This document shows, in pieces, positions 8,052 to 52,694 of a stretch of DNA of 64,000 bases. This stretch comes from a virus. The stretch lies in the IMG/VR virus record IMGVR_UViG_3300032236_001457, positions 1 through 64,000 of that record; one strand, written 5' to 3'. The notes under the pieces are model-generated. The model saw only the letters and a program-made list of their open reading frames with translations, did not search any database and was not told where the DNA came from. The position numbers and the translations under genes are program-made. Each line of letters begins with the position of its first letter. Positions within the stretch are counted from its first letter, which is position 1.

Positions 8052-8743
8052 AAGATTTCCTGATCGGCAACCTTATTTATGCTATATCTAGGAACAAACT
8101 CTTCTACTCTGCGGATCTTCCCACCCGCTGCCATAGTAATCATCATGACCATGTTGCGATCGCGGGCATAAAAATAACAGGCACTGGGCCAAAATCCTCG
8201 TTTACCGGAAAAGTTCTTTCGTGTTGCATTAGGAATCCCGATACAGTTCTCGTCATACTTTTCTGCCCATTCAAGCATATTGGATGCAGTATCGGTATCC
8301 ATGTCCTTGAACACTACTCTGAACTTATACCTGTGTTTAGGAAGATGATTACATAACACGATCTTGCTATCGCCCTCCATGATCTCAAGTTCTGCGGTAT
8401 CAGCTGGCTCTGTCACACTGATAACATAATCTGCAAGTTCTGTGGCCATTTCCTGATACAGCACCGGATCCTTGATAAAAATACTAATTTGATCATGCTC
8501 TATTCGTAATTTTATACCAAGTGCTATATAGTGCTCTAATTTGATTAGATAATCCAGCAACAATAACGGATCGATATTCTTTCTTTTTGACCAATGCCGA
8601 TTGATGTTAGGAGTGATACACCATTTTTTTAGGTATTCAATTCCGCGAGCCCTTAACAGCGTGGCTCCTACCATACCAGTTGAGATCTTGTAGGGCCACT
8701 CTCCGTAGAACAGTTTATTGGTCTTCAGTTTCTTCGGTATCAT
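8027..8743 (-). CDS. Hypothetical protein
   Basis: ORF track, 238 aa, in operon after clpA. Confidence 0.7.
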   Translation of the reverse strand: MIPKKLKTNKLFYGEWPYKISTGMVGATLLRARGIEYLKKWCITPNINRHWSKRKNIDPLLLLDYLIKLEHYIALGIKLRIEHDQISIFIKDPVLYQEMATELADYVISVTEPADTAELEIMEGDSKIVLCNHLPKHRYKFRVVFKDMDTDTASNMLEWAEKYDENCIGIPNATRKNFSGKRGFWPSACYFYARDRNMVMMITMAAGGKIRRVEEFVPRYSINKVADQEILCQHLAKV

Positions 8744-10988
8744 TTTTAACCTTGCTGACAGGAAGGATATCTACAATATTGAGTTTGAGTTCGGTTCCAT
8801 CGACACTGAGTTCTACAATACCGCCATTAGCTAGACTGCCAAATAGGATTTCACGGCTTAATGGTTTCTTGATCTGCTCATCGATAACACGCTGCAAAGG
8901 TCTGGCACCCATTTTGCTATCAAACCCTCGATCGACCAAATATGCCAGTGCTAGAGCATTTGGTTTGACATGAATATTTTTATCTTTAACTAAACTATTG
9001 AGATCATCGATAAACTTCTTAACAATCTTAGTCATTGTATTCTTGTCCAACTTACCAAAGCGGATAACCCCGTCTAGCCGATTGCGGAATTCTGGAGCAA
9101 AGAATTTATTAACAGCATCTTTTGGATCGCCGTCTCGTTCCAGACTACCAAATCCTACGCCGTTCTTTTCAGCATCAGCAGCACCCAAGTTGCTGGTCAT
9201 AATGATGATAGCACTACGAGCATCTGCTTTCTTACCATTGCTACCGGTAATAAATCCATTGTCCATGATCTGTAGTAGAAGTGTTAGCACATCTGGGTGT
9301 GCTTTTTCTACTTCGTCTAGCAACAACACACAATGTGGAGTTTCCTGCAGACTAGTAATTAGTTGTCCAGCATTTTCTTCGAAGCCTACATATCCTGGAG
9401 GACTACCGATGAACTTGGCCACGCTGTGTTTTTCTTGGAACTCACTCATGTCAAACCTAATCAGTTTGATACCCATGTTAAGTGCCAGTTGTTTAGCAGC
9501 CTCGGTCTTGCCTACGCCAGTTGGTCCTACGAACAAGAAACTACCTACTGGTTTGTTCAGACTCTTCAATCCGGCTTGAGCAATAAACACCTTATCAAGT
9601 AGACTTTCAATAGCCTTTTCCTGCCCATACACTTTGGATTTCATGTTCTTTTCCAGTGATTGTGTATTGACATTTTCCTTGTTGTTGATCTGGTCGAAGC
9701 TGAGGTTAGCAAGTTTTGCTACTTCAAAAACGATTTCCTCGTGATCCACAATGCCGCCTTCTTGATCTTTCACTTTAAATCTAGCACAGGCACAGTCAAT
9801 CAGATCAATGGCCTTGTCTGGTAGCTTCTTATCAGTTAGATATTTCACGCTGTATTTGACACTGTCAATTACGGCCTGGTTAGTAATTTTAACCTTGTGA
9901 TGACGCTCGTAGTATTTTTTAATACCTTTAACAATCTTAATTGCAGTATCCTCATCGGGCTCATCGACAACTACACGCTGGAAACGACGCATAAGAGCAC
10001 GATCTTTTTCAAAGTGTTTGCGGTATTCTTCCCAAGTAGTGCTGGCAATAACTTTAATAGTGCCTTTGCCCAGTGCGGATTTCAACATATTGGCCATGTC
10101 GTTGCTGCTGCCATTAGCAGCACCGGCACCATTCATCATGTGTGCTTCGTCAATAAAAAGAATAGATTTGCCTTTCTTTTCAATAGCACCAATAACTGCC
10201 TTTAATCGTTCTTCAAAATCACCACGATATTTGCTGCCTGCTAGCAGTGCGCTGATGTCTAGACTATAGACATTGTGCTCTTGAATAAATTTAGGAACAT
10301 TACCTTCAAAGATTTTACGAGCCAATCCTTCGGCAATAGCAGTTTTACCGACACCGGGGTCGCCGATCAGAATAGCGTTGGCTTTGGTACGACGAGCCAA
10401 CACCAATTCAATTTCTTCAATCTCCTTGTCTCGCCCAATAACAGGATCAATTTTTTTAGACTTGGCTTTAGCAGTTAGATTAGTGCAGAACTGAACAATC
10501 ATGCGTTCTAGCTGTGCTGTTTTAGAATCAGTTGCTGCTGCTTCTTCATCTTCGCGAACTAGCTCTTTCTTAACAAAGTTAATGAATTTGTCTTTGTCAA
10601 TATTGGCCTTTCTAATGAAAAAGCTAGCATGACTTTTCTTTTCAGAAAACATGCTGAGGAAACAATCAACTGGTTCGATGATTTGCCTGCCACTGAACAA
10701 GACCTGTGTAAAAGCACGATTCAACATGCGATCTACAGTGTTGGTCTTTTTGGGTTTTTCTTGTTCAGGATTTACGATTTCCTGTAGATTGTTTTTGATA
10801 TAACTGTCTAGATCTTCTTTGAGAACATTTACATCTGCTCCAAATGCGGTTAGTATTTCAGCAAAGGAATTATTATTGACCATGCTGTATAAAAAGTGTT
10901 CCAATGTAATATATTCATGGTCGTATACACTGGCTATTTTAACAGCATTTTCAAAAATGCTCTCGAGATCTTTATTTGGTTCTAACAT
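8715..10988 (-). CDS. clpA: ATP-dependent Clp protease ATP-binding subunit ClpA
   Basis: Clp N-domain, two Walker A motifs (GDPGVGKT, GPTGVGKT), KYRGDFEERLK, ClpP-docking VGFG loop, GARPLQR. Confidence 0.95.
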   Translation of the reverse strand: MLEPNKDLESIFENAVKIASVYDHEYITLEHFLYSMVNNNSFAEILTAFGADVNVLKEDLDSYIKNNLQEIVNPEQEKPKKTNTVDRMLNRAFTQVLFSGRQIIEPVDCFLSMFSEKKSHASFFIRKANIDKDKFINFVKKELVREDEEAAATDSKTAQLERMIVQFCTNLTAKAKSKKIDPVIGRDKEIEEIELVLARRTKANAILIGDPGVGKTAIAEGLARKIFEGNVPKFIQEHNVYSLDISALLAGSKYRGDFEERLKAVIGAIEKKGKSILFIDEAHMMNGAGAANGSSNDMANMLKSALGKGTIKVIASTTWEEYRKHFEKDRALMRRFQRVVVDEPDEDTAIKIVKGIKKYYERHHKVKITNQAVIDSVKYSVKYLTDKKLPDKAIDLIDCACARFKVKDQEGGIVDHEEIVFEVAKLANLSFDQINNKENVNTQSLEKNMKSKVYGQEKAIESLLDKVFIAQAGLKSLNKPVGSFLFVGPTGVGKTEAAKQLALNMGIKLIRFDMSEFQEKHSVAKFIGSPPGYVGFEENAGQLITSLQETPHCVLLLDEVEKAHPDVLTLLLQIMDNGFITGSNGKKADARSAIIIMTSNLGAADAEKNGVGFGSLERDGDPKDAVNKFFAPEFRNRLDGVIRFGKLDKNTMTKIVKKFIDDLNSLVKDKNIHVKPNALALAYLVDRGFDSKMGARPLQRVIDEQIKKPLSREILFGSLANGGIVELSVDGTELKLNIVDILPVSKVKNDTEETEDQ

Positions 10989-23297: not shown

Positions 23298-25751
23298 TTA
23301 TGTATTAATTTTAGCAGATAGAGCATCAACCTTGGCACTGAGTTCCTGAATAGCTTTAATTAATGGTGCTATAAGTTCTTCATATCCAATGCTTAGTACA
23401 TCATCCCCGCCTTTAATAGAGTGGTCTTGATATCCACCAAAATCTACACCTTTGTTGTCCATTACAGATTTAACTTCTTGTGCAATTAATCCATGATGAT
23501 ATCTGGTTCTAATCTTACTGCCATCATGCACGAGATTAGACATTTTTACTGACTCTTGCCAGGCCGACATAGCAGAGTTATATGCTTCTAATGCAGAGTT
23601 GTATTCGGCAGTTTGTTCTTCAGTAGGATCAACAGGCAACACTGGTTTGGATAGATCGGGTGCCGGTTGTTTATAATCTTCCCGCATATCCCATTTATAA
23701 TCTACTGGTCTTAGTGCTAGAATAAAATCTAACCCTAATTGTGTGTCACGAATTTCTGTTTTATCTCGTTGATCCGATCTGATTGACAATGCTGCGTAAG
23801 CATATGGAGTTGTGCTGGAATCTCCAAGTTGAACCTGATTATCCCCTGTAACCGCTGTATTGGCTCCTACTCCAGTACAATTATTATATGCAGTCATTGA
23901 GTACATGCTACTGAATCCCAATGCGGTATTATAAGAACTGACAAGATTGTTTTGTAAGGCGCCTACTCCGAGTGCTGAGTTATTACTTCCATTAGTTAAT
24001 GAATATAATGATTTATATCCAACTGATGCATTATTAGCACCGCCAATAAAGGTGAAAAGTGATTGAACTCCTACTGCTGTATTCTTATCCCCAGTTGTAG
24101 TTGTTGATCCACCGTATAATGATTGGTTACCTACTGCTGTATTATTGCTAGCTTCTGAATAGTATCCAGCACTGCTGCCTACAAATGTTCCGTTAGATCC
24201 TGAAACATTAGACAGTCCGGCATTCATTCCTATTCCTACATTATCTGATCCACTTGTAGAATTTCTAAGAGAAGAAGATCCGCCTACTGCTGTATTATTT
24301 ACACCGGTTGTTAGTGCTATAAGTGCATTAGCACCTATTGCTATATTAGAAGAATCTGCTGCTCCGCTAGCACCACCGAGTCCGATAGCAATAGCATTAG
24401 CAACAGTTAATGTCTTATTTCCAGAACTCCATCTAAGTCCTGAATCGCCTGTTAATCCTGATCCATTTCCATAGGCTACATAGCCGCTAACAAGAGCAGG
24501 TCCTGAGCTACCTGCTCCACTTGGGCCGCTTGGTCCCTGTGGTCCCTGCGCTCCAGTATTACCTTGTGGACCCTGTGGTCCTTGTGATCCGGCAACTCCT
24601 TGTGGCCCGGTTGGTCCTGAACTGCCTACCCCACTTGGACCCTGTGGACCAGTTACTCCTTGTGGCCCCTGTGGACCTTGCACACCACCGACTCCAACTC
24701 CTGTTGGTCCTAGCGGCCCTTGTGGTCCTGCTACGCCTTGTGGGCCTTGCGGTCCAGCAACTCCTTGTGGTCCTTGTGGCCCGGAACTTCCTGCACTAGC
24801 AGCCAATAGATCGCTACCGACACCAGTGTTAGCGGACGACAGATCGATGAATACACCTCTATTACTACCGCCTGTTTCAAAAATTCTTAATTTATTTCTA
24901 AAGATATCTATAGTAACACCAGTATCAAGTGTGGTGTTGGTAGCTGCTTTGTTTAATCTTAATTCACCACCTTCGTCTCCGGATTGGCTAGAAGAATATA
25001 AAAATGGAGTTGTTAGTAACCCACTAAACGGTCTGTAAAATAGTCCGGCGTCGACGGCTATGTCATTGTATGCATTAGCACTGGCAGACATTGTAACATA
25101 GAGATCGCTGTTGGCATTGCTTTCTGCAGTATATATCTTAGTTGTTTTATCTGCATTACCTACAACTACAGTGGATGTATTGACCCATGTAGCAGTGCTG
25201 GCATTGCTCTGTAAAATATATCCGGCAGACCCGATAGGTATAAAAGCTGTTGTATTAGTAGCACTCTGTATAGGAATGCTTCCACCTGTGCCACCTGCAA
25301 TATTAGCAGGAGTTGATGGGCCGCTCGGTCCCTGTGGTCCTTGAACACCTGCTCCTGTCGGTCCAACTGGTCCTTGTGGCCCTGTTGCTCCTTGCGGTCC
25401 TGTTGCTCCTTGCGGTCCTTGTGGCCCTTGTGGCCCTGCAACTCCTTGTGGTCCTTGTGGTCCAGTTACTCCTTGCGGTCCCTGTGGTCCAGTGACACCC
25501 TGCGGTCCTTGTGGCCCTGTAACTCCTTGCGGTCCCTGTGGACCTGTAACTCCCTGCGGTCCTTGTGGCCCAGTTACACCTTTTGGGCCTGTTGGTCCTA
25601 CTGGTCCGGATGTTGCTAATAACGAAGCGGTTTGTGGTACTGTTAGATATTGATAAACAGCAGAATCCTGCACAACAAATTTAGTTTCGCCCTCAGTGGG
25701 ATTGGTCAGTTGTGGCAACGAAGATATATTGATGTCAGGGCGGAATGTCAT
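23298..25751 (-). CDS. Collagen-repeat tail fibre with beta-helix/YadA-like head and intramolecular chaperone (peptidase S74)
   Basis: GPQ triplets, NNTAVG repeats, SDQRDK...LRPVDYKW...HGLIAQEV...[15 protein letters not shown]. Confidence 0.85.
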
Positions 25752-26150: not shown

Positions 26151-27044
26151 TTATGTTACATAAAAAACAATTCTACCTTGGCGACCTTGTTGACCATGCC
26201 TTGTTCCGTTGCCACTAGCTGGACCTTGCCCACCTCGACCGCCGCCGCCGTAGTAAGTTGGAAGTGTGCCATAATCAGTGCTCCCAAAATTACCACCTTG
26301 CCCACCATCGCTTGAATAATAAGAGTAAGTTCCACCGGCTAAAGTATAGGTACTGCCAACTCCGCCTTGACCTGCGTTGTTAAGCGTATCATATCCAACT
26401 CCACCGTTTCCGCCACCACCGCCGCCATTACCTGATCCGCCGTAATCCCCGCCGGCTCCTCCAGAATTACCATTTCCGCTATTACCACCGGTGCCTGTTA
26501 AATAGACTCCATTAACAGACGAAACTGAACCATATGTTCCGCCATATCCTCCTGTACAAGATACACTGCCTCCGCCGGAGAATCCTGACATACTGCTGGC
26601 ACCGCCTTGGGATCCATTACCTACTGCATTACCGTATGCCCCTCCGTCGCCTACTGTTAAACTTAAACTGCTGGTTCCTGACAATGAAAGAGAGAAATAA
26701 TAAGCCTGACCGCCACCGCCGCCTCCCCCTCGTGAAGGAATAGTTCCGCCGGTATTATTTGCATTTGATGCACCGCCCCCGCCACCGCCGCCCGCAACAC
26801 AAATTGCTTCTATAGTGCTAGCACCGCTAGGCTTGGACCAGCTAAATGTGCCTACGGTAACATAATCATATAAAGTAGGAGTAAACGCACTCTTCCCTAA
26901 AAAATCCTGCATACTGGTAGGCAAAGGATTTAATCCGGCTAGGAAAGATGCATATGCTAGCCCTCCGGATAATCCAGGTCCGACCGCTGGAAACTCGGCC
27001 TGTATCGCTAATAAATCAATCGGTAATGAATTAGTTAATGCCAT
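26151..27044 (-). CDS. Glycine-rich adhesin-like protein (gp38-like)
   Basis: Short N-domain ending SMQDFLGKS, multiple polyglycine motifs; directly downstream of a chaperone-bearing fibre. Confidence 0.65.
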
Positions 27045-29436
27045 TTATGCTAGCTTTAATATTATCTAACTCTTTTTTAAGTTCTTTGATGGCTTCAATT
27101 AGCAATCCAGTAATATTACCATAAGCCACTGATAGATATCCATTGGTATTTTCTTGCACGACCTCGGGAATTATTGTCTGTATCTCTTGGGCAATAACTC
27201 CGATATTTGTCTTGCCATCTTGAAGACTGCGATAATTTACTCCCCTTAATTGTAGAACTTTTTCTAAAGCATCTTCAATGGTAGTAATATCGGTTTTTAA
27301 TCTTTGATCAGATGTAGCAGTAACGTTAACAAAACTAGGGCTATCGGTAGTAGCCACTCCTTGGTTCATTGCTAAAGCATAGGAATTACTAGGTCCTTGT
27401 GGTCCTTGCGGCCCAGTATTACCCTGCGGTCCCTGTGGTCCTTGTGCGCCAGTATTACCCTGCGGTCCCTGCGGTCCTTGTGCGCCAGTATTGCCTTGTG
27501 GACCTTGTGGTCCTTGTGCTCCAGTATTGCCTTGAGGTCCCTGTGGCCCTTGTGCTCCAGTATTGCCTTGCGGGCCTTGCGCACCAGTATTTCCCTGTGG
27601 CCCTTGGGGTCCCTGCGGACCGGCATTACCTTGGGGTCCCTGTGGTCCTTGTGCGCCAGCATTACCCTGTGGCCCTTGTGGTCCGGTATTTCCCTGTGGC
27701 CCTTGTGGCCCTTGTGGACCAGCATTACCCTGTGGCCCTTGTGGTCCGGTATTGCCTTGTGGTCCTTGTGGTCCTTGTGCGCCAGCATTACCCTGTGGCC
27801 CTTGTGGTCCTTGAGGGCCTTGTGGTCCTTGGGCACCTGCTCCACTTGGTCCTTGTGGTCCAGTAACTCCTTGTGGTCCAGTTGGACCTTGAACTCCGCC
27901 GATTCCGACTCCAGTCGGTCCACTCGGTCCTTGTGGTCCAGTTACTCCTTGAGGCCCTTGCACTCCACCAATTCCGACCCCTGTTGGCCCACTTGGCCCT
28001 TGCGGTCCAGTCACACCTTGTGGTCCTTGCGAACCTACTCCACTCGGTCCTTGTGGTCCAGTGACTCCTTGTGGTCCAGTTGGTCCTTGAACTCCGCCGA
28101 TTCCGACTCCAGTCGGTCCACTTGGTCCTTGTGGTCCGGCAACTCCTTGTGGGCCTTGCGCACCTACTCCGCTCGGTCCTTGTGGTCCAGTAACTCCTTG
28201 AGGTCCAGTCGGTCCTTGCACTCCACCAATTCCGACTCCAGTTGGCCCGCTCGGTCCTTGTGGTCCAGTTACTCCTTGTGGTCCCTGTGGTCCTTGAGCA
28301 CCTACTCCGCTCGGTCCTTGTGGTCCAGTATCCCCTTGTGGTCCAGTCGGTCCCTGAACTCCACCAAGCCCTACTCCTGTTGGCCCCACTGGTCCTTGTG
28401 GTCCAGTTACTCCTTGTGGTCCTTGAGCACCTGCTCCGCTCGGCCCCTGTGGTCCTGCAACTCCTTGTGGTCCGGTCGGTCCTTGCACTCCACCGATTCC
28501 GACTCCAGTTGGCCCTGCTGGTCCTTGCGGTCCGGTAACTCCTTGTGGTCCTTGAGCACCTGCTCCTGTAGGACCCGACGGTCCTTGTGGCCCAGTTAAT
28601 CCTTGTGGCCCAGTTGGTCCTTGCACTCCGCCGAGCCCTACTCCGGTCGGTCCTACTGGTCCTTGTGGTCCTTCTACACCTTGCGGTCCCTGTGGACCAG
28701 GATCGCCTTGTGCCCCTTGTGGGCCAGTTAATCCTTGTGGTCCGGTTGGTCCTTGAACTCCACCAAGTCCGACACCTGTTGGTCCTACTGGTCCTTGTGG
28801 TCCAGTTACTCCTTGTGGCCCTTGAGCACCTGCCCCACTCGGTCCTACTGGTCCTTGTGGCCCAGTTGCTCCCTGTGGTCCTTGAACACCTGCTCCTGTT
28901 GGTCCACTGGCTCCTTGTGGACCAGTTACACCTTGCGGTCCTGGATCACCTTGTGGTCCTTGCGGTCCTTCTACTCCAGTTGGTCCTGTATAACCTGTAT
29001 ATCCCTGCGGCCCAGATACTCCACTTGGGCCGCTCGGTCCTGTAACTCCTTGCGGGCCGGGCACGTTGCTAACTCCACTTGGTCCCTGTGGCCCGACAAC
29101 TCCCTGTGGACCTTGTGGTCCTGTAACTCCCTGTGGTCCTTGAGGCCCGGTAACTCCTTGTGGACCTTGTGGTCCTGTAACTCCCTGCGGTCCTTGAGGC
29201 CCAGTAACTCCCTGCGGTCCTTGTGGTCCCTGCGGTCCAGTTACACCTTGCGGTCCTTTCGGACCCTGTGGACCGGCTCCTCCGGAAACTACACCTAATA
29301 GTTGTGTAACTTGATCTGCGGTGATATATTGAGTCACTGCACTATCTTGTACAACAAATGTAGTTTCCGCAGTTGTAGGGTTATTTAAATGCGGTAATTG
29401 TACAAGATTAGGAGGAAATGGTGGTCTAGTAGTCAT
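27031..29436 (-). CDS. Long collagen triple-helix tail fibre with C-terminal intramolecular chaperone
   Basis: About 630 aa of mostly Gly-X-Y repeats, then SDQRLK...IGVIAQE...[15 protein letters not shown]. Confidence 0.88.
27390..29280 (-). repeat. Collagen-coding tandem repeats ([29 protein letters not shown])
   Basis: Dense ggtccttgtggtcc-type repeats on the + strand. Confidence 0.95.
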
Positions 29437-35897: not shown

Positions 35898-36221
35898 ATG
35901 GAACTGATTATCGTTTTAGCTATTGTAGGCATCATCATTGCCTTTCTAGTCATGCAGAGAAGAAAAGAAATTGCAGTTGTAGACCAACCTGCAGTAGGTC
36001 AACCGTTTCTACCTACAGAACCTGTAGCAGAGCCAGTCATTGAGCCAGTGGTAGAAGCTGCTCCTGTAGTAGCAACTGCAGAGGTTGCCGCTCCGGCTGT
36101 TGTAGTTGATAAACCGGCGTCAAAGGCCAAAAAGCCACGTAAGCCTAAGGCTGTTGTGGCAGATGATTCGGCTGCCGAGGCTGTTAAGAAGCCCCGCAAG
36201 CCACGTTCAAAGAAGGTTTAA
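35898..36221 (+). CDS. Membrane-anchored protein with Pro/Ala linker and Lys-rich tail
   Basis: N-terminal TM, AAGGA RBS, TAAATA upstream. Confidence 0.7.
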   Translation: MELIIVLAIVGIIIAFLVMQRRKEIAVVDQPAVGQPFLPTEPVAEPVIEPVVEAAPVVATAEVAAPAVVVDKPASKAKKPRKPKAVVADDSAAEAVKKPRKPRSKKV

Positions 36222-37220
36222 TTCTCGAGCCTGATTGGCCAGTTCGAAGCTGGCTAAATTTTTGGCCTTGCTTTCGCACATAAGGTCGAAATGTTCTAGA
36301 AATTGTAGTGCCCATTCATTAACAGACCTATTCCAGTAATAGTCACTGTGGGCACGTAGCTTTTGTTTCTTATGTCCGGACTCAATCAGTGAATGATAAT
36401 CGGGTAGGATGTCTGTGGCATGATCAACGAGATAGTCTTCACGGCTGACGCTATAATGAAGAGTAGGGCGCACACCACGCCAGCTTTCCAAGACACGTCG
36501 GACACGCGGGTCAGTAGGGCTGATATATTCACCCTCCCTCGCCCAATGGTGGTGAATATCAAGAACAATAGGCACAATGTCAGCAATAGATAAGCAATCA
36601 TCTAGCCCCCAGGCGTTTTCTTCGTTTTCGATAGTGAGACAATTACGGGCTTCTGGTGAGAGTCGATTGTAGGTATCGCGAATACCTTGGGGACCGGCTC
36701 TACCGGCGATGTGGACGTTGATCTTGAAATCTTGGAAGGTCTTGCCATATCCCATGTAACGGGCCATATCCGCATGGTATTCAAACTCCTCTATCGAGCG
36801 GGTAACAATATCAGGGTCAGCGGAAGCAAGAACAACAAACTGACCAGGATGCATACTAAGACGAATATTGCTTTCACGAGCGCGATCCCCAATAGGACCA
36901 AGATGCTGCTGAAGATAATTGCAAACATCCCCACGCCGCCAAAAATAGCTCCAATTAGGCTCGGTATAAGCAGTACATAAATCACTACCAAGCCTAACCA
37001 TTTTGAGATGCTCATCAAGCCCACCTATATAATTAACCAAGTTGCCCACAGCAGCAACATTATGGACCATAATGTCCCATAGTCGTTGCTCGGCAATCCC
37101 ACGTTCTTGATTATTTAACCAAGTTATTGTAGTGCTTTTGAAATTGAGGTCAGGAATAGCTTCGATGCCTTTTTTGGTCAAGGCAGATGCCTTGCAGGCA
37201 AAACCGATACGTTTAACCAT
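36207..37220 (-). CDS. uvsE: UV damage endonuclease UvsE/UVDE
   Basis: RIGFAC, RLSMHPGQF, IENEE, VLDIHHH, RAHSDY. Confidence 0.92.
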   Translation of the reverse strand: MVKRIGFACKASALTKKGIEAIPDLNFKSTTITWLNNQERGIAEQRLWDIMVHNVAAVGNLVNYIGGLDEHLKMVRLGSDLCTAYTEPNWSYFWRRGDVCNYLQQHLGPIGDRARESNIRLSMHPGQFVVLASADPDIVTRSIEEFEYHADMARYMGYGKTFQDFKINVHIAGRAGPQGIRDTYNRLSPEARNCLTIENEENAWGLDDCLSIADIVPIVLDIHHHWAREGEYISPTDPRVRRVLESWRGVRPTLHYSVSREDYLVDHATDILPDYHSLIESGHKKQKLRAHSDYYWNRSVNEWALQFLEHFDLMCESKAKNLASFELANQARELNLL

Positions 37221-44955: not shown

Positions 44956-45431
44956 TAGACTACCTGATGTTTATCTACAACCTGTTGAATAACTTTCGCT
45001 ACCAATTGATTAAGTGTGATGTCCTGTTCGTGAGCCAAGCTCATTAGACGGAACATTTCGACTTCACCCAGTTCTAGTGGAATACTAACACGAGTATCAT
45101 AGTCTCGACCTGCCACAATGGCTTCAGCCTTTTCTAACCAATCTGCTTCATCTTCCAAATCTGTCCATTCAACATCATCCCAGGCTTGTTTATCAAGATC
45201 CTTACGATGATCTGGGTGGGTATACCGGTAAGCACGACTGTTTTTATAGTCGCAGGCTTGGACACAATAGACTGTTTGATCTTGTGTATTGAAGATCACA
45301 CAGAGGCTATGGCCATCTTGATCGCCGTTCCAACTGTCCAGACTGTAGGCACCGGGCTCAAATCCATACCAATCACTACCTTCTGAAATACGATAGTTAA
45401 CAGTTTCCATGAATTGTTTCAGTGTAATCAT
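44955..45431 (-). CDS. Hypothetical protein with possible C-terminal ribbon-helix-helix
   Basis: ORF track; LAHEQDITLNQLV. Confidence 0.7.
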   Translation of the reverse strand: MITLKQFMETVNYRISEGSDWYGFEPGAYSLDSWNGDQDGHSLCVIFNTQDQTVYCVQACDYKNSRAYRYTHPDHRKDLDKQAWDDVEWTDLEDEADWLEKAEAIVAGRDYDTRVSIPLELGEVEMFRLMSLAHEQDITLNQLVAKVIQQVVDKHQVV

Positions 45432-45640
45432 TTCCGGTCCTCTTCGTTAATTGTTTCACTATTATAAATGACGGTGCCGTCTGTGTCAAGAACTTCGTAT
45501 ACCAGAGGTTCTGGGCCCAATGCGGATCTCAAGGAGGAGATGGCCTGTTCGGCTACGATTCTTCCTTGGGATCCAGGTTTGAATGCCACAATGAGCCATT
45601 CAAGAGCCTCCAGGGCTTCTCGCATGGCCTCTGTGCTCAT
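45428..45640 (-). CDS. Hypothetical protein
   Basis: ORF track; ATGA-coupled. Confidence 0.6.
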   Translation of the reverse strand: MSTEAMREALEALEWLIVAFKPGSQGRIVAEQAISSLRSALGPEPLVYEVLDTDGTVIYNSETINEEDRK

Positions 45641-45808: not shown

Positions 45809-45982
45809 TTATTTTACTCCAAAATGTTTTTTAATTAGATCGGTGGCGTGGTATGGTTCGGCGGTTTCGGCTATGCGAGCGCATTCTGCTACGGCAAGTT
45901 CGATTAGTCGTTCCAATCTATCTTGTTCGTATGTTGAACTAAATCCTGCCAGTTTGATTAGTTGTTGAATATTTGTGTTCAT
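45809..45982 (-). CDS. MNERI/HFGV-family micro-protein
   Basis: MNTNIQQLIKLAG...AECARIA...KKHFGVK. Confidence 0.7.
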   Translation of the reverse strand: MNTNIQQLIKLAGFSSTYEQDRLERLIELAVAECARIAETAEPYHATDLIKKHFGVK

Positions 45983-46713
45983 TTTTTGTTGTTTATAAAA
46001 ATTCCTCTCCAAGAGAGATCTAAAAACTTTGATAAATTAACATTGGATTCTTTTTCTGTGTGAAAAGGTTCTACATTTTCCTCAGAAAAATAATTCTTTA
46101 AATCTCGTAAATTGTCGGTTTTAGGATGAGCCCACAAGTGTTTTTTAAAATCTACAGTTTCTTCTGTTATGCCGTCAGGTAGTTCAACATCTACAAGAAA
46201 TTCGTCGGTTGTATTTTGAGATGGATCCACAGGCACAATTGGCCAAGATTTCATCTTTGCATCAAACACACAAAATTTACTATTGAATTTTAATTTTTTT
46301 CGTATATTTTTAATAATTGTTTTGGTATCTATGGTATGTTGCAATGCCCAGACGGCAATACCTACAGTGAAATAATTATCAGGAAGCCGAGAGAATTCCG
46401 CATTATTGATGGCTGTGAAATTTGAATGATTAACATATTTGGTTGCATATTCCAACATTTTAGATTGAAAGTCTACACCTATTACTTTACAATTAAATTC
46501 TTCAATAATAGGTTTTGCTAACCTTCCTATGCCACACCCCCAATCTAGCACAACACTGTCTTCGTTAAAGAGATTGGTCTCGCGAAAATATTTCATTGTC
46601 CATTTGGTTTCTGTTTCCCATTGATCGGGAATAGAATCATCCGTTAGTATTATTTTTTTAGCATGTTCAATATCAGTTGGCTCAAAAAAATCGTAATTGT
46701 ATTTTACTAACAT
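45979..46713 (-). CDS. Class I SAM-dependent methyltransferase
   Basis: VLDWGCGIGR, GVD, WALQH motifs. Confidence 0.85.
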   Translation of the reverse strand: MLVKYNYDFFEPTDIEHAKKIILTDDSIPDQWETETKWTMKYFRETNLFNEDSVVLDWGCGIGRLAKPIIEEFNCKVIGVDFQSKMLEYATKYVNHSNFTAINNAEFSRLPDNYFTVGIAVWALQHTIDTKTIIKNIRKKLKFNSKFCVFDAKMKSWPIVPVDPSQNTTDEFLVDVELPDGITEETVDFKKHLWAHPKTDNLRDLKNYFSEENVEPFHTEKESNVNLSKFLDLSWRGIFINNKK

Positions 46714-46958
46714 AAAACTCCAAAATGTTTAGATATGCGACTCATAGCCTGTTTCAATGCTCTGTTATGTGCCCGGTATAATCCTTCTATGGATTCATCA
46801 TGAGGATCAGGTTCAATCAGGTCATCAACGCAGTTAATACATTCCTTTACTAATAATTCGGCAAACTTTTCCAAACTGAACTGACGAGTATGTAAACCAG
46901 TTTGCCCGGGTATATGTATCATTGCTTCTTCTGCCAATCTTTCAAATTGTTCGTTCAT
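46707..46958 (-). CDS. MNERI/HFGV-family micro-protein
   Basis: MNEQFERLAEEA...KFAELLVKECI...KHFGV. Confidence 0.75.
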   Translation of the reverse strand: MNEQFERLAEEAMIHIPGQTGLHTRQFSLEKFAELLVKECINCVDDLIEPDPHDESIEGLYRAHNRALKQAMSRISKHFGVLC

Positions 46959-47296
46959 CGGCAGACCTCTATAGTAGCATCGGGTTCATTCCAGCAGGCA
47001 TTACGGTATTCATAAACAAACCGCCAAAGATTATCGTAATTACCCCAACCATTCTCTGGATTATGTTGTTTGAAACGATCGGGCTCACTCAGTAGTATGT
47101 TCCAACCTTCGTCCAGCAATTCCGCAATATCTTTAGCATAAACCAATTCATGTTCATCGGGTCGCCATAACACATCGTATAGTGTTAGTCCATTAGACAA
47201 TTTAACTTCGGAAGCCATCTTACACAAGTTATGAGTAATGTTGTTGTCATAGACTCTTACAGGTTTGGTCACATTTAAGGATACGGTTAAACTCAT
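46955..47296 (-). CDS. Hypothetical phage protein
   Basis: NITHNL..MA, NPENGWG.Y motifs; coupled to both neighbours. Confidence 0.7.
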   Translation of the reverse strand: MSLTVSLNVTKPVRVYDNNITHNLCKMASEVKLSNGLTLYDVLWRPDEHELVYAKDIAELLDEGWNILLSEPDRFKQHNPENGWGNYDNLWRFVYEYRNACWNEPDATIEVCR

Positions 47297-47400
47297 TCTT
47301 CAATTCCTACTGATTTACATTTGTGGAATGGCATAATTCGACCAAGCCATCCAATCAGTTCACCGCAATTTTGGCAACAGTATGATGGGTATTTCTTCAT
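47293..47400 (-). CDS. 35-aa Cys-rich peptide ending GIEE (not in ORF track)
   Basis: MKKYPSYCCQNCGELIGWLGRIMPFHKCKSVGIEE; ATGA overlaps at both ends. Confidence 0.6.
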   Translation of the reverse strand: MKKYPSYCCQNCGELIGWLGRIMPFHKCKSVGIEE

Positions 47401-47585
47401 TCTTCAACACCAAAATGTTCTTTGAGATAATCTACATTGTCGCCGCGGTGAAACGCAACATCGATACATTCTCTCACCATCAACTCGGCGAACTTTTTAC
47501 ACTCGGGCATATCCCAATGACCAAATCCAAACATATCCGCTTTATATCCAGCCTGTTCGGCAAGTTGTTCAATTCGTTCGTTCAT
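47397..47585 (-). CDS. MNERI/HFGV-family micro-protein
   Basis: MNERIEQLAEQAG...KFAELMVRECI...EHFGVEE. Confidence 0.8.
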   Translation of the reverse strand: MNERIEQLAEQAGYKADMFGFGHWDMPECKKFAELMVRECIDVAFHRGDNVDYLKEHFGVEE

Positions 47586-47893
47586 TCGTCAACTCCATAC
47601 TTCTTGTTTAGTTTTTTAATCTCTGCTCGGAGATTTCGTTTCTCATATTCAGCCCAACCAAGTTGCTCCTGCATATCCCGCATTTGTTGAGCAAAGTCAC
47701 GATCAGCAGGTGAGAGTTCTTCTTCTGCTCGTAGAATAAACTTACCATTTTCCCAATCAAATCCATTCTGAGCACTTTTAACAGCGACCATAGGAATCGC
47801 ACCAACTGTAGAGTAGGGCAGTTTAATGGCAATCATTACTTCATTCTCATCGCGGACATGTTCCAGTATGCGTTTGAGTTCGCTAACTTTCAT
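47582..47893 (-). CDS. Hypothetical protein ending in a YGVDE tail
   Basis: ORF track; ATGA-coupled at both ends. Confidence 0.7.
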   Translation of the reverse strand: MKVSELKRILEHVRDENEVMIAIKLPYSTVGAIPMVAVKSAQNGFDWENGKFILRAEEELSPADRDFAQQMRDMQEQLGWAEYEKRNLRAEIKKLNKKYGVDE

Positions 47894-48105
47894 TCTTCAA
47901 CTCCAAAATGTTCTAGAATCTGTAGGCTACAATGTTGTCTGCTTCTAACATCATCACCGGGGCTGGGACGACTTTCACATATTAGAGCACATTCCCGCAC
48001 AATCAACTCGGCGAACTTCTCAGCAAACTTTCCATAAGTTGAAAACTGGTCGTTGACAATGACCATTCCAGCCTGTTCGGCAAGTTCTTTAATTCGTTCG
48101 TTCAT
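47890..48105 (-). CDS. MNERI/HFGV-family micro-protein
   Basis: MNERIKELAEQAG...KFAELIVREC...EHFGVEE. Confidence 0.8.
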   Translation of the reverse strand: MNERIKELAEQAGMVIVNDQFSTYGKFAEKFAELIVRECALICESRPSPGDDVRSRQHCSLQILEHFGVEE

Positions 48106-48215
48106 GGTTTACCCCATATTGCTTCTAATACTGTATTAAGAGATACATTCAATATCCTTGAGATTACTTCTATTTGGAATCCTTCTTTATACATCTCTCT
48201 GATTTCATCCTTCAT
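48102..48215 (-). CDS. 37-aa HTH-like peptide (not in ORF track)
   Basis: MKDEIREMYKEGFQIEVISRILNVSLNTVLEAIWGKP; ATGA overlaps at both ends. Confidence 0.65.
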   Translation of the reverse strand: MKDEIREMYKEGFQIEVISRILNVSLNTVLEAIWGKP

Positions 48216-48433
48216 TCTTCAACTCCGAAATGTTCTAGTTTCTCGTTTAAGAGATTCCAACTGACGCTACCAACTATGAACATATCACGGCAAATCTCAA
48301 TCTGTTCTTTCGCAATCAACTCGGCGAACTTTTCTAATTCATCGTAGCCTACAGTAGTGGCAGGTTTACTGCCAAACCAAAAACACTCTTCTGCTCTAGC
48401 CTGCTCTAAAAGTTGTTCAATTCGTTCGTTCAT
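48212..48433 (-). CDS. MNERI/HFGV-family micro-protein
   Basis: MNERIEQLLEQA...KFAELIAKE...EHFGVEE. Confidence 0.8.
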   Translation of the reverse strand: MNERIEQLLEQARAEECFWFGSKPATTVGYDELEKFAELIAKEQIEICRDMFIVGSVSWNLLNEKLEHFGVEE

Positions 48434-48786
48434 TTCATATTCCTTCCAATTTCAGCCGCGGCCCTGACGATGGCACGGCGGGTGGCGGCGTAGGGGTCGG
48501 TGCCGTACATGATTTTTCCAGTGCCTATGTAGCCTCCGTCAAACCAGCCGACCACGTAGTCGTCGTAATGCTTTATGTCGATCTTCAACTTCACCGCCAT
48601 CCTGAAGGCATCTCCATCGTCGGTCAGGGGTAGCCAAGCAAACGGTCGCCGGCTAGGCGTTGATGGGTCGCTGACATAAAGACAATTGTCCATCATGTCG
48701 TCCCAGCCAGAGATTCCATACCCCGCCGCCTTGGCAGCGTACTGGAGCAATTCATGGTCCAATTCTTGTATTCGTTCATTCATCAT
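48430..48786 (-). CDS. Chimeric hypothetical protein: MNERIQEL head plus GC-rich body
   Basis: ORF track; the body is visibly more GC-rich than its flanks. Confidence 0.75.
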   Translation of the reverse strand: MMNERIQELDHELLQYAAKAAGYGISGWDDMMDNCLYVSDPSTPSRRPFAWLPLTDDGDAFRMAVKLKIDIKHYDDYVVGWFDGGYIGTGKIMYGTDPYAATRRAIVRAAAEIGRNMK

Positions 48787-49049
48787 TTTCTTTCCCTAGT
48801 TTTTAACAACATCACTTGTTCTTCGGTGGCAAATTCACTAATAAAGACACTGCTGTATTCTTTGCCTAACACTTTGTTTAGTAGGCCTGGCCCTAGTCCG
48901 ATAAATTCATATCTATAGTTATCCAGTTCGACTATCATGTTTTTAGTATCAACACGAAGATTTTGATTGGTAGTAAGGGTATCTTTACATTGATTAAATT
49001 TATGTTTGGCTTGTTCGTGCGTATCACAAACAAATAGTGTGCTATTCAT
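48783..49049 (-). CDS. Hypothetical protein
   Basis: ORF track; ATGA-coupled. Confidence 0.65.
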   Translation of the reverse strand: MNSTLFVCDTHEQAKHKFNQCKDTLTTNQNLRVDTKNMIVELDNYRYEFIGLGPGLLNKVLGKEYSSVFISEFATEEQVMLLKTRERK

Positions 49050-49261
49050 CCGTCAACTCCGAAATGTTCTTTAATCGCATCAATCATCTTCTCGCAAGCA
49101 CGGTTATATCCAATAACAAAGTGTGTATCAGTTTTCGGTTCTCCTCTAACCTCTGAGGCAATGTCTAAAAATTCCCGAACAATTAACTGGGCGAACTTGA
49201 AATCATCATAGTGTGCTGAGCCATATACTTGTTCAGCAAGTTCTTTAATTCGTTCATTCAT
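49046..49261 (-). CDS. MNERI/HFGV-family micro-protein
   Basis: MNERIKELAEQ...KFAQLIVRE...EHFGVDG; start reassigned to 49261. Confidence 0.8.
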   Translation of the reverse strand: MNERIKELAEQVYGSAHYDDFKFAQLIVREFLDIASEVRGEPKTDTHFVIGYNRACEKMIDAIKEHFGVDG

Positions 49262-49484
49262 TGTTTGCCACACTATATCGTTCTGCCAGTCGGCGAATAG
49301 TGTCAATCCTTGGGCTTCCTAATGAATCATCATTGGTCAATTCGCTTAGAACATCGTAGACAATACACTTGTAGAATTTGGTCAGTTCTTCACGATTGAA
49401 AGTAAAAGATGCTGGAGGTTTGGGAAAGTCCCATTCTTTTTGACCGGCACAATCAATAGCAAGTTGTTCAAATAGTTCGTTCAC
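49254..49484 (-). CDS. Divergent MNERI-family micro-protein
   Basis: MNELFEQLA...ELTKF; first gene after a strong promoter. Confidence 0.65.
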   Translation of the reverse strand: MNELFEQLAIDCAGQKEWDFPKPPASFTFNREELTKFYKCIVYDVLSELTNDDSLGSPRIDTIRRLAERYSVANNE

Positions 49485-49516
49485 GATTCAATTCCGTTTT
49501 TACACTGTATGAATAC

Positions 49517-49545
49517 ATTATACAGACATTGCAGGGAATCGTCAA
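49517..49545 (-). promoter_or_regulatory. Strong sigma70-type early promoter TTGACG-N17-TATAAT
   Basis: Near-perfect consensus heading the MNERI array. Confidence 0.85.
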
Positions 49546-49568
49546 TCCGTTGTGGTTATACAACAATT

Positions 49569-49814
49569 TTAGGACCACCTCAACATAAACCACATAAATT
49601 TCTTTTCATCAACAATGCGGTAGTCTTCAATACTGTGGAGTTTGTGATTCAAATCAAGTTCTATGCCGTATTCAACTAGTATACGATGTATTTGAGCGTC
49701 AAGTCTTGCATTGCCCGTGACAAGTCGTGCTTCTGGTGTAAGAGTGACTGGAACATGACGCCCAAATTCACTGTATTCTCGACTTAATATTGTTTGTAAT
49801 TCGCAAGGCTTCAT
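49569..49814 (-). CDS. LRWS-tail micro-protein
   Basis: Ends FMWFMLRWS; start reassigned to the ATGA overlap. Confidence 0.7.
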   Translation of the reverse strand: MKPCELQTILSREYSEFGRHVPVTLTPEARLVTGNARLDAQIHRILVEYGIELDLNHKLHSIEDYRIVDEKKFMWFMLRWS

Positions 49815-50017
49815 GACCACCTCAATATGAACCAAGCATAATCACGATCATTGTCAAAATGAAACAGCATCTCTTGAGCCATAATACGAAATCCCCATCT
49901 AAACTGGTCGCCTACACTGTATAGGTCAGGAGCCATTTGTCCAAATTGTTGATCGCACCAATCCAGCATTTTACTCACTACATACGGATTCATACACTGA
50001 AATTTAGCTTCAATCAC
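49811..50017 (-). CDS. LRWS-tail micro-protein
   Basis: WC..QFG...F.F....D.AWFILRWS; GTGA overlap start. Confidence 0.7.
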   Translation of the reverse strand: MIEAKFQCMNPYVVSKMLDWCDQQFGQMAPDLYSVGDQFRWGFRIMAQEMLFHFDNDRDYAWFILRWS

Positions 50018-50196
50018 GACCACCTCAAAGAAAACATTAACGCATCTTTTTCGTCGCTAAAATGATAATCAACCTTAGTATGATCATATGTATTGTATCC
50101 ATCCATGTGCATATCGTTAGTAATATAACTTGAACAATATTTTTTAGCCCAATGCAATGGTTCCCAAAATGGATCGTAAGGTATGGTAACTGTCAT
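50014..50196 (-). CDS. LRWS-tail micro-protein
   Basis: Ends FSDEKDALMFSLRWS; ATGA overlap start. Confidence 0.7.
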   Translation of the reverse strand: MTVTIPYDPFWEPLHWAKKYCSSYITNDMHMDGYNTYDHTKVDYHFSDEKDALMFSLRWS

Positions 50197-50411
50197 GACC
50201 ACCTCAATATAAACCACGCACAGTCAGGTTCATTGCGAAATTTGAAAACACCCTCGCCATCATAATGCCAGCTAGAGTCCAGGGTGTAACCAAACTGTTT
50301 CTCGCACCATTCTATACAGGGTGTCCAACCTTCATACATTTCTCCTCTTGGAGGAACCGTTGTAATCGGTGCCGGCACACTGGCCACATACCATCCATCG
50401 TAGGTCTGCAT
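50193..50411 (-). CDS. LRWS-tail micro-protein
   Basis: WCEKQFG...FKFRNEPDCAWFILRWS. Confidence 0.7.
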   Translation of the reverse strand: MQTYDGWYVASVPAPITTVPPRGEMYEGWTPCIEWCEKQFGYTLDSSWHYDGEGVFKFRNEPDCAWFILRWS

Positions 50412-50506
50412 TTTAACAAAGACCGAATGTAGAGTGGGTGATTAAGTAATGGGCACTGATGATCATCACAATGATGCCAAACAGTTGGATGATTCGATCC
50501 ATGTGA

Positions 50507-50716
50507 TTATTTTTCATTACTGGGCAATCCAAAATGTTGTCGAATTTCTCTTGCGGTGCCTCCGCCGGTCATTTTGCTTTCGGCAATTTTGACACATTCA
50601 ATAGCAATCGACTCAGCGAATTCTCGCATCTGCTCAAAAGTGTATCCGTGGAGATCGCCTCGTTCTGGATCATACCCTAGCCATTCTTGAGCGGGTAGTT
50701 TAATTCTTTCGTTCAC
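50507..50716 (-). CDS. MNERI/HFG-family micro-protein
   Basis: MNERIKL...EFAESIAIECVKIA...IRQHFG. Confidence 0.7.
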   Translation of the reverse strand: MNERIKLPAQEWLGYDPERGDLHGYTFEQMREFAESIAIECVKIAESKMTGGGTAREIRQHFGLPSNEK

Positions 50717-50795
50717 TCAATACCCCCAAGATAGTATACCACCACACCCGCTCCAATAGTAATTGTCGCAACCAATTAATTGAATAGGATAAAAT

Positions 50796-51002
50796 TCAAT
50801 CACCTTTACCAACCCACATATGAGCTACTTCTTCAAAGTCAAAGATTTCTCCTGCTTGTCGATAACGATCTTCACATGGTCCGCAGACAGTTTGATACAC
50901 GATGGCTCGCTCGCCATAACGATCTGTGCCTTTGGTCATAATATGATAAGCGTGTGGAAAGTCAAATACCTCATGACCGCAACTCAGTATAATTCTGCTC
51001 AT
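50796..51002 (-). CDS. Small Zn-binding-like protein (CGH...C..C)
   Basis: ORF track. Confidence 0.65.
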   Translation of the reverse strand: MSRIILSCGHEVFDFPHAYHIMTKGTDRYGERAIVYQTVCGPCEDRYRQAGEIFDFEEVAHMWVGKGD

Positions 51003-51136
51003 TACCGATCCTTGGTATCCTTTGTTTCTTCAACTTGCGTTTCAAACCTAGGTTCGATATATCGATCCCAAACCTTTTGGCCACTGTTCCAACCAAATAC
51101 TGAGAAAAACCCAAATAGTATAGCACCCCAGATCAT
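51002..51136 (-). CDS. Small membrane peptide (MIWGAILFGFFSVFGW...)
   Basis: ORF track; start taken at the ATGA overlap with 51133..51342. Confidence 0.55.
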   Translation of the reverse strand: MIWGAILFGFFSVFGWNSGQKVWDRYIEPRFETQVEETKDTKDR

Positions 51137-51342
51137 AGTGGTCTCGTATAAAAGTCTTTGATTTCCTGTGCCACTTGGCGGCCATTGCCATCTGACAGTA
51201 GTGCAATTCCTATGCAATCTTCAATGATCAACCGAGCAAAGCGTGTTAATTCTTTTTCGTAAGCCATTATTGGTTTACCGTGTTCAAATCCAGCAGATGC
51301 GAATCCTGATTCAAACGCTAGTTCTTTAATTCTTTCGTGCAT
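51133..51342 (-). CDS. MNERI-family micro-protein
   Basis: MHERIKELAFESG...RFARLIIEDCI. Confidence 0.7.
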   Translation of the reverse strand: MHERIKELAFESGFASAGFEHGKPIMAYEKELTRFARLIIEDCIGIALLSDGNGRQVAQEIKDFYTRPL

Positions 51343-52097: not shown

Positions 52098-52694
52098 CTA
52101 TACTACTGGATCAGTTATGACTAGGGAATCGCCGCGTTTCATAATATTACTTAGATTCAAATCATCGTCGCCGTTGTAACTACTTAGATCTAGAATGGTT
52201 TCAAAAGCGGCCAAAAGATCAGGCCAATGTTCTTTTAAAAAGTCCTCATTCTCTGGCCAAAATATTTCTTCCCAACTCCTGCTGTTTAATTCAGGATCTA
52301 TATATTTGGCAAAAACAGGATCTGTTTTTGAGTTAAATGGCGTTAATCTTTCCATTCTAACTGCATAGGCTGTGGGACTTATACGCCACATCTTACCATA
52401 TACTCTAGGCAAAAATGGATTTTTTTGATTGGCCACAACATACTTGAGCCAATCTACACCCCCGGTGTGTTCAGTAAATACTTTAAGAACATACTCATAT
52501 TTTGGATTAGAGTATACTAGAGAGAACATACCACTACCCAACAGCGTCCAACCAAGTTTTTCTAAATGAGTTGATAAATTCTCTTGTTCCTTTTTTCCAT
52601 AGAATTTATCATTTAATCCAGGATCGCTGCCAAGTTGTTGTGCAGCCTGAAAAGCAGGATGTTGTTTATAGCCAGTTAGTTCATTTATTCTCAT
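52098..52694 (-). CDS. Protein kinase-like protein (T7 gp0.7-like) with MRINEL leader
   Basis: LGSGMFSLVY, VLKV, ME.L, DLNLSNIM, LVITDP; ATAAATA at 52700-52706. Confidence 0.75.
   Translation of the reverse strand: MRINELTGYKQHPAFQAAQQLGSDPGLNDKFYGKKEQENLSTHLEKLGWTLLGSGMFSLVYSNPKYEYVLKVFTEHTGGVDWLKYVVANQKNPFLPRVYGKMWRISPTAYAVRMERLTPFNSKTDPVFAKYIDPELNSRSWEEIFWPENEDFLKEHWPDLLAAFETILDLSSYNGDDDLNLSNIMKRGDSLVITDPVV

Follow-up and report, generated by a model that had tools for sequence, protein, structure and literature searches.

The first 64,000 nucleotides (the window) of the 101,834-bp IMG/VR virus record IMGVR_UViG_3300032236_001457 contain, at positions 45809–51342, an array of very small genes, nine of which encode members of a single protein family. 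The family is put together from three conserved DNA blocks (A, B and C) and two variable segments, in the order A-V1-B-V2-C. Judged from the sequences, recombination takes place inside all three blocks, and the array is probably best explained as an operon in which a predicted three-helix family is shuffled through them. The evidence is of three kinds: the blocks keep their codons constant across unrelated phages; V1 and V2 assort independently of one another (216 pairs of genes share only one of the two, against three that share both); and homology breakpoints fall inside the blocks. A first-pass annotation of this DNA had proposed that conserved blocks serve as recombination joints that diversify the array, and in this respect it was borne out.

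The blocks, each about 30–40 nt long, were found in the window at counts far above those expected from shuffled sequence. Block A (ATGAAYGAACGAAT, read on the minus strand) gave nine matches at ≤ 2 mismatches compared with 1.16 expected, five of these being exact copies (47572, 48092, 48420, 48770 and 49248); the block B 17-mer was exact at 47479, 48002 and 48315 and present with two mismatches at 49182 (0.05 expected); and block C was present at 47402, 47895, 48217 and 49051 (0.11 expected). Nucleotide alignment of the four best copies showed near-identical blocks separated by sequence of variable length that could not be aligned. Four family genes are closed by GG(A/T)GTTGA(A/C)G(A/G)ATGA, in which the stop codon overlaps, as ATGA, the start of the next gene; block C also holds, for that next gene, a GGAG Shine-Dalgarno (SD) sequence and a 7-nt spacer before the ATGA. 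The positions of the blocks, the unrelated sequence between them and the initiation signals in block C had all been described in the first-pass annotation and were confirmed. Its count of about ten micro-genes was close: a hidden Markov model (HMM) built from the aligned family proteins of the window identified nine open reading frames (ORFs), all on the minus strand, with none elsewhere in the 101,834-bp record, while the tenth (48430–48786) has block A only. The nine members, with lengths in amino acids (aa), are as follows.

47397..47585, minus strand: 62 aa, consensus-like blocks (A at about 47547–47585, the B 17-mer at 47479–47495, C at 47397–47426); its V1 module (YKADMFGFGHWDMPEC) is in a class met with seven different V2 partners.
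47890..48105, minus strand: 71 aa, the most consensus-like member, its blocks having 0.89–0.97 nucleotide identity to the family consensus; five other members, with different V2 segments, belong to the same V1 class.
48212..48433, minus strand: 73 aa; its V1 and V2 classes are each shared with another, differently partnered member.
49046..49261, minus strand: 71 aa from the MNERI ATG at 49261, with the reading frame staying open as far upstream as the TTG at 49306; there are two mismatches in block B, and block C reads GGAGTTGACGGATGA.
46707..46958, minus strand: divergent member of 83 aa, blocks 0.59–0.72 identical to the consensus, both variable segments in singleton classes.
45809..45982, minus strand: divergent member of 57 aa from an ATG at 45982, the ORF extending to 46012; its V2 class is present in five other members, under four different V1 partners.
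49254..49484, minus strand: divergent member of 76 aa with a GTG start, the first gene after a promoter-like site.
50507..50716, minus strand: divergent member of 69 aa with a GTG start.
51133..51342, minus strand: divergent member of 69 aa.

In the family consensus, blocks B (AAGTTCGCCGAGTTGAT) and C (CATTTCGGAGTTGAAG) have TTCG...GAGTTGA in common, with a 2-base offset and in different frames, and the complement CGAA is present twice in block A. No stable pairing or role was found for these elements and they may be due to chance.

The blocks are conserved as DNA, beyond the amino acids that they encode. Family-wide analyses, which covered 287 members from 80 IMG/VR loci, showed that, when members of unrelated locus clusters were compared, identical residues had the same codon (codon identity) at a frequency of 0.705 in block A, 0.711 in block B and 0.767 in block C, compared with 0.476 in loop columns; the value for 15 control families taken from the same loci was 0.44, both in columns that were ≥ 80% conserved and in the remaining columns. 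Synonymous sites in the blocks are therefore not saturated family-wide. The crude proportion of synonymous differences (pS) for whole blocks (0.44–0.53) is confounded by non-identical residues, and codon identity was used instead. Codon choice was specific to position: lysine is encoded by AAG in 197 of 227 members at column 31 and by AAA at columns 6 and 64; glutamate by GAG in 197 of 228 at column 34 and mainly by GAA at other conserved columns; and Arg4 by the rare CGA (218/241), Ala33 by GCC (226/264), Leu35 by TTG (233/271) and Gly68 by GGA (231/246). The effect was independent of locus GC content over a range of 35 to 52%. In the window, the four consensus-like members had 25/27, 22/28 and 23/29 identical codons compared with about 13 expected. 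Local gene conversion was rejected as the cause of this constancy, which is family-wide, because same-locus paralogs were no closer to each other in the blocks than were members from unrelated phages (0.70 versus 0.71). RNA structure was likewise rejected, as RNAalifold applied to 40 members found no consensus structure linking the blocks.

These data bear on two other explanations. If the array were an ordinary tandem paralog family, its blocks would be kept for the protein only and its loops would merely have diverged. Most pairs of members in the window do lie near the codon expectation (382 identical codons observed versus 302 expected overall), and the blocks coincide with the helices of a predicted small bundle. 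Against this stand a block codon identity of 0.71–0.77 compared with 0.44 in equally conserved columns of the control families, the position-specific choice between AAA and AAG and between GAA and GAG within the same genes, and, as described below, the independent assortment of V1 and V2 and an explicit chimera; we regard this explanation as very improbable. The main rival is that the block nucleotides are kept for a direct expression function (initiation, SD/coupling, or a site for a nuclease or regulator) and that recombination is a by-product. Block A starts at the start codon; block C holds the GGAG, 7-nt spacer and ATGA, with ATGA as the end of 171 of 262 family members; the same 15-nt junction closes 73 non-family or fragmentary ORFs; and the equal similarity of same-locus and between-phage members fits constraint better than local conversion. 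The codons of block C are thus partly explained by its SD/start role for the next gene. Block B has no such explanation: it lies in the middle of the gene, no role in expression is evident for it, and its codons are equally constrained (0.711), with use of AAG, GCC, GAG and TTG, which are otherwise disfavoured. The rival also lacks any RNAalifold structure linking the blocks, and is compatible with the 216:3 assortment and with proteins in which block B is duplicated without explaining either alone. An expression function fits blocks A and C, not B, and on balance we consider it unlikely as the overall account.

Independent assortment of the variable segments was the second line of evidence for shuffling at the blocks. 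Counting segments as shared at ≥ 60% identity, V1 only was shared by 110 pairs of genes from unrelated loci, V2 only by 106 and both by three; agreement of two windows (20 aa) was found in 1.4% of pairs in the family compared with 44% of comparable pairs in the control families. The 269 usable members fell into 183 V1 classes and 184 V2 classes, with more than half of the multi-member classes having several partners; the broadest were a V1 class with seven partners in six locus clusters and a V2 class with seven partners in nine. Segments of the window itself belong to shared classes with different partners, namely V1 of the members at 47397, 47890 and 48212 and V2 of those at 48212 and 45809. 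As pairs that share a variable segment almost never share the adjacent flank (upstream flank common to 2/109 V1-sharing pairs and downstream flank common to 4/107 V2-sharing pairs), blocks A and C also act as joints. Module sharing was more frequent for members with more consensus-like blocks (p about 1e-3). Between loci, shared modules are typically 60–95% identical with a ratio of non-synonymous to synonymous differences (pN/pS) of about 0.2, and their synonymous-site conservation was 0.59–0.69 compared with 0.73–0.82 in the flanking blocks; such values indicate modules that are old and functional, under purifying selection.

Individual products of exchange were also identified. Over A+V1, gene 7141 of locus L029 has 88% nucleotide identity to gene 9719; its remaining sequence, starting at the 3′ end of block B and running to the stop codon, is shared at 100% with gene 9161. 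By sequence it is therefore chimeric, the crossover lying within block B, and the arrangement recurs in L028, a related locus from a different sample. Four proteins in public data (P0216, P0224, P0145 and P0262) carry a duplicated block B in the order A-V1-B-V-B-V2-C, and so have three variable segments; five others (P0136, P0140, P0156, P0238 and P0243) keep A-V1-B and continue into unrelated C-terminal halves. Both kinds are, from their sequences, what unequal or illegitimate exchange at block B would be expected to yield. Homology breakpoints within arrays, compared between related loci, fell inside a block in 10 of 16 events against a null expectation of 0.15, these events being few, partly redundant and not independent. 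Breakpoints and module boundaries fall in the blocks as had been anticipated, so that neither of the outcomes named in the first-pass annotation as refuting the idea, breakpoints placed at random and saturated synonymous sites in the blocks, was obtained family-wide. The unit of diversification needs restating, in that shuffling at the blocks was upheld and is mainly sub-genic, exchanging two variable segments within one protein.

Several points weigh against this reading. The breakpoint events are limited in the manner just given; same-locus paralogs share no more block codons than do members of unrelated phages; the synonymous sites of the five divergent window members look saturated; and no crossover could be dated within the lineage of the source phage, for which no close relative was found. 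In addition, all loci compared are metagenomic assemblies, and short Logan contigs break at repeats whatever the biology. The mosaic could on these grounds be an artefact of contigs being joined at short repeats, since the blocks are repeats of 17–40 nt and short Logan contigs end there. An artefact of this type is extremely unlikely: the shared modules are typically 60–95% and not 100% identical, as expected of diverged homologs and not of mis-joined reads from a single sample; L028 and L029, whose samples differ, have one chimeric arrangement in common; and the modules are under purifying selection (pN/pS about 0.2).

Shuffling at the blocks may sometimes extend to whole genes. From 49306 down to 45809 the array is a single chain of genes with short overlaps, mostly ATGA, in which family and non-family genes alternate. 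Alternation with unrelated cargo had been noted in the first-pass annotation and stands, including a methyltransferase; the match of a further cargo peptide to a helix-turn-helix (HTH) domain was below the Pfam threshold. C-like tails on cargo were also verified, on the 103-aa and 35-aa ORFs. The non-family ORFs of the chain are listed here.

48430..48786, minus strand: chimera ORF of 118 aa with block A only, in which about eight N-terminal residues (MMNERIQEL) are joined to a phrog_5086 body; the body has a GC content of 0.52 compared with 0.36–0.42 in the flanks, and Pseudomonas and Acidovorax phage homologs align from residue 10 only.
47582..47893, minus strand: non-family gene of 103 aa matching PHROGs of unknown function, ATGA-coupled to the member at 47585, with a block-C-like tail ...YGVDE encoded by GGAGTTGACGAATGA.
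47293..47400, minus strand: Cys-rich ORF of 35 aa whose end, ...VGIEE, is encoded by the block-C-like junction GGAATTGAAGAATGA.
45979..46713, minus strand: class I SAM-dependent methyltransferase of 244 aa between two divergent members, overlapping both by a few bases.
46955..47296, minus strand: cargo gene of 113 aa, phrog_4019, of unknown function; its homologs adjoin family arrays in loci L053, L064, L065 and L077.
48102..48215, minus strand: 37-aa ORF whose HTH_7 match is sub-threshold, coupled through ATGA at both ends.
48783..49049, minus strand: cargo gene of 88 aa that matches no family, coupled through ATGA at both ends; contigs of three other freshwater studies match it with 5–6 differences.

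Across the loci, the block A DNA motif was present at 223 sites, and at the 220 where an ORF could be read it headed 212 family genes and eight non-family ORFs, several of the latter being short remnants. The 15-nt junction GGAGTTGAAGAATGA (≤ 2 mismatches, n = 244) ended 171 family genes and the 73 non-family or fragmentary ORFs, among which were many unrelated proteins ending ...GVEE, including the 103-aa and 35-aa ORFs of the window; in the 101-kb record this junction was present only at 47.3–49.1 kb. Truncated ORFs with only A or only C are common debris. Single cassettes were found on Logan contigs from four other freshwater studies, with 4–8 differences per 210–380 nt and with matches that stop at block edges (47625–47900, 48404–48784, 48770–49076 and 48218–48427), and many differing contig continuations were present at 48105, 47890, 48018 and 48313. 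As the blocks are generic repeats, uncovered stretches and short-sided joints (e.g. 48105 to 48211) are uninformative. The single-cassette contigs are consistent with cassette mobility and no proof of it.

The first-pass annotation had gone further and likened the array to an integron. Capture of unrelated genes in this manner is weakly supported by the eight block A grafts and the 73 non-family ends closed by block C; no recombinase or other gene was consistently linked, and the products with a duplicated block B look like those of ordinary unequal crossing-over between homologous sequences. In its strict form, a dedicated site-specific system in which a block-recognizing recombinase inserts and excises cassettes, this explanation would account for the alternation of family and unrelated genes in one coupled chain, for non-family ORFs headed by block A (including the GC-rich 48430–48786) and for the many unrelated ORFs closed by block C junctions. 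However, the most widespread gene family beside the arrays was present in no more than 12 of 65 locus clusters, and the neighbours met most often are replication and nucleotide-metabolism genes (AAA ATPase, 5′–3′ exonuclease, ligase, Mre11-like phosphoesterase and ribonucleotide reductase); no recombinase domain was found in those family and cargo ORFs of the array in the window that were scanned; the repeats are direct and coding, without hairpin potential; and duplicated block B products are typical of unequal homologous exchange. We therefore judge a dedicated capture system to be highly unlikely, and return to exchange of homologous type at the blocks.

The proteins themselves are predicted to share a compact fold. 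An AlphaFold2 model of the member at 47890..48105, from a 120-sequence alignment, had a pLDDT of 89 with helices at residues 3–11, 26–45 and 53–67 and a beta-hairpin between helices 1 and 2. From these helix positions, blocks A, B and C are predicted to be framework helices 1, 2 and 3 of one three-helix fold of ~70 residues, with V1 modelled as the beta-hairpin and V2 as a loop that runs into the beginning of helix 3. The family had no credible match in Pfam, PHROGs or NCBIfam and no significant match in the PDB by sequence profile or Foldseek; Foldseek matches in BFVD were confined to uncharacterized proteins of uncultured Caudovirales and those in the ESM Atlas to uncharacterized viral proteins. 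Two family members searched by tblastn against 50,697 GenBank phage records, and the array searched against the same phages by megablast and blastn, gave no match. In metagenomic data the family is abundant: a profile search of 1.84 billion representatives (one per 50%-identity cluster) returned 9,660 matches at E ≤ 1e-3, a word-indexed search returned at least 8,000 candidates, and relatives are encoded on at least 484 IMG/VR stretches. Among the 79 loci retrieved from IMG/VR that had a hit, 64 had 2–10 copies on one strand, often with 4-nt overlaps.

Candidate signals for transcription of the array are limited to consensus matches, so that the strong early promoter of the first-pass annotation is putative, as is its reading of the products as early anti-host peptides. 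The promoter corresponds to the following site.

49517..49545, minus strand: sigma-70-like match (TTGACG, 17-nt spacer, TATAAT; 11/12), a consensus match only, in an 84-nt gap upstream of the coupled gene chain.

Promoter-like and terminator-like sites at 44–53 kb were not above shuffles, and the late promoter TATAAATA had two sites in the window, none of them near the array and fewer than in shuffles. A 12/12 match to the sigma-70 consensus (TTGACA, 17-nt spacer, TATAAT) is located at 45461–45489 on the minus strand, just downstream of the array and inside or beside ORFs at 45428–45640; this site may head the next transcription unit. A second tandem set at 49569–50411 (minus strand) comprises four genes of 67–88 aa, all ending ...(F/W)(I/M/S)LRWS and three of the four starting MV(Y/H/V)IE. 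Its single genes are present in other freshwater metagenomes at ~93% identity (12–15 differences per ~190 nt), with matches that stop at gene ends, and it has homologs in loci L032 and L048; it may represent the same junction-based design in a different sequence.

All genes around the array are on the minus strand. The record, whose completeness was estimated by CheckV at 27%, comes from a jumbo phage, since one of its proteins is also carried on a 352-kb contig. Its gene products include a ClpB-like ATPase, collagen-repeat fibre proteins, a clamp-loader-like ATPase and UvdE; positions in the window are given here for three of these and for a protein flanking the array.

8715–10988, minus strand: full-length phage-encoded ClpB/Hsp104-like double AAA+ protein.
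36207–37220, minus strand: phage-encoded UvdE UV-endonuclease.
23298–25751 and 27031–29436, minus strand: two large collagen triple-helix repeat proteins with a C-terminal Peptidase_S74 intramolecular chaperone domain, likely to be tail fibres.
52098–52694, minus strand: 198-aa protein flanking the array.

GC content is raised, to about 0.50, at 26–30 kb of the window. A peptide-pattern scan of IMG/VR found no relative of the 198-aa flanking protein, and a flank-protein scan of the same database found no close relative of the source phage with which the locus could be compared.

We compared the array with known systems of phage and bacterial diversification. In the T-even adhesin gp38, hypervariable segments (HVS) lie between conserved glycine-rich motifs (GRM), a limited palette of motifs per segment is swapped between phages, and the conserved motifs mediate the shuffling (PMC3157838, citing Tetart et al. 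1998). Both systems alternate a conserved structural core with hypervariable segments swapped between homologs. They differ in that gp38 is an adhesin of the tail-fibre tip with four variable segments, whereas the present family is a predicted three-helix bundle of 70 aa, encoded in multiple tandem copies in an early/replication-region operon, with two variable segments and a last block that is the ribosome binding site (RBS) and start of the next gene; no homology to gp38 or its glycine-rich motifs was found, there being no Pfam, PHROG or NCBIfam match. The promoter-early stem-loop (PeSL) cassettes of T4-type phages are short repeats that act as recombination substrates in hyperplastic early-gene regions, leading to insertion, deletion and replacement of ORFs (PMC2839356, PMC4122927). 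Differences between related arrays end in repeats here too (the 10 of 16 breakpoints, with their small and partly redundant number); a PeSL, however, is an intergenic promoter plus terminator, while the present repeats are coding, carry an RBS and stop/start junction, and sustain crossovers that are also intragenic. The first-pass annotation had suggested a conceptual kinship with T4 PeSL shuffling in which the repeats are coding, and the resemblance holds in these respects.

Other parallels are more distant. The T-even internal proteins Ip1–3 have a conserved capsid-targeting sequence on diverse small proteins encoded at variable loci (PMC3012670, PMC12373910). The presence of block A at the head of a few non-family ORFs (8 versus 212 family genes) may be comparable and offers a lead only; there is no sequence relation, and the fold model makes block A a packed helix and not a leader; a search for the PF03420 prohead protease gave no match in the 27%-complete record, where control searches also gave none. 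Contact-dependent growth inhibition (CDI)-type systems follow the same displacement principle as Rhs. In Rhs C-terminal displacement, variable segments are exchanged by homologous recombination at a conserved boundary and the displaced fragments are left behind (PMC2935791). Rhs and CDI are bacterial toxin systems of large proteins with one boundary, in contrast to a phage mini-protein with three boundaries and no evidence of toxin or immunity. Integrons use an IntI-type tyrosine recombinase and attC sites, whose imperfect inverted repeats fold in single-stranded form, to assemble promoterless cassettes behind one promoter. The array is similarly a one-directional set of small genes, probably mostly promoterless, behind a candidate promoter, with unrelated genes interspersed; it differs in having no integrase in the ORFs scanned, no attC-like folded sites and coding direct repeats, and in products that resemble homologous exchange. 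Diversity-generating retroelements (DGRs) combine a reverse transcriptase with a template repeat and make adenine-specific substitutions with no change in length, unlike the variable segments here, which are unalignable and of unequal length; no reverse transcriptase domain was found in the array ORFs scanned. The system matches gp38-type motif-mediated shuffling and resembles PeSL, and is a member of neither, nor of integrons or DGRs. Literature searches returned nothing on the motifs or on comparable phage families, and as far as we found the family-wide excess of synonymous conservation is unreported for this family.

Taken together, the array would be a hyperplastic early-region operon dominated by one unannotated three-helix family, with three blocks held nearly constant in nucleotides across unrelated phages. 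Judged from the sequences, recombination, probably of the general homologous or annealing type, crosses over repeatedly in these blocks, within arrays and between phages. It brings V1 and V2 modules into new combinations, at times together with entire neighbouring genes, and arrays also expand, contract and leave debris. Phage recombinases tolerate short and diverged homology (PMC3945230). The nucleotide constancy may be maintained by recombination or for it. The early-region context, together with conserved and freely reassorted surface modules, suggests that the proteins are early host-interaction binders with two variable surfaces engaged in an arms race. A stronger reading, which we put forward tentatively as possible and less likely than not to hold in full, is that the invariance of the block DNA is itself a selected trait (through lineage selection for recombinability, or use by an annealing machinery) and that the family is a phage-borne combinatorial library of early, or possibly injected, binders directed at variable host targets in uncultured freshwater phages; about 180 × 180 module classes are visible in 269 genes. 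If true, such a library would be a functional analogue of antigen-receptor or antigenic-variation systems based on gene conversion.

Most small early phage genes are orphans; here a single unannotated family of ~10^4 clusters has a mode of diversification that can be read from its sequence. The family offers a testable model for the origin of new phage accessory proteins, for synonymous sites that are held constant by or for recombination, and for the targets of variable surfaces. If its modules target host defences, it would be a source of new inhibitors and a compact, engineerable scaffold.

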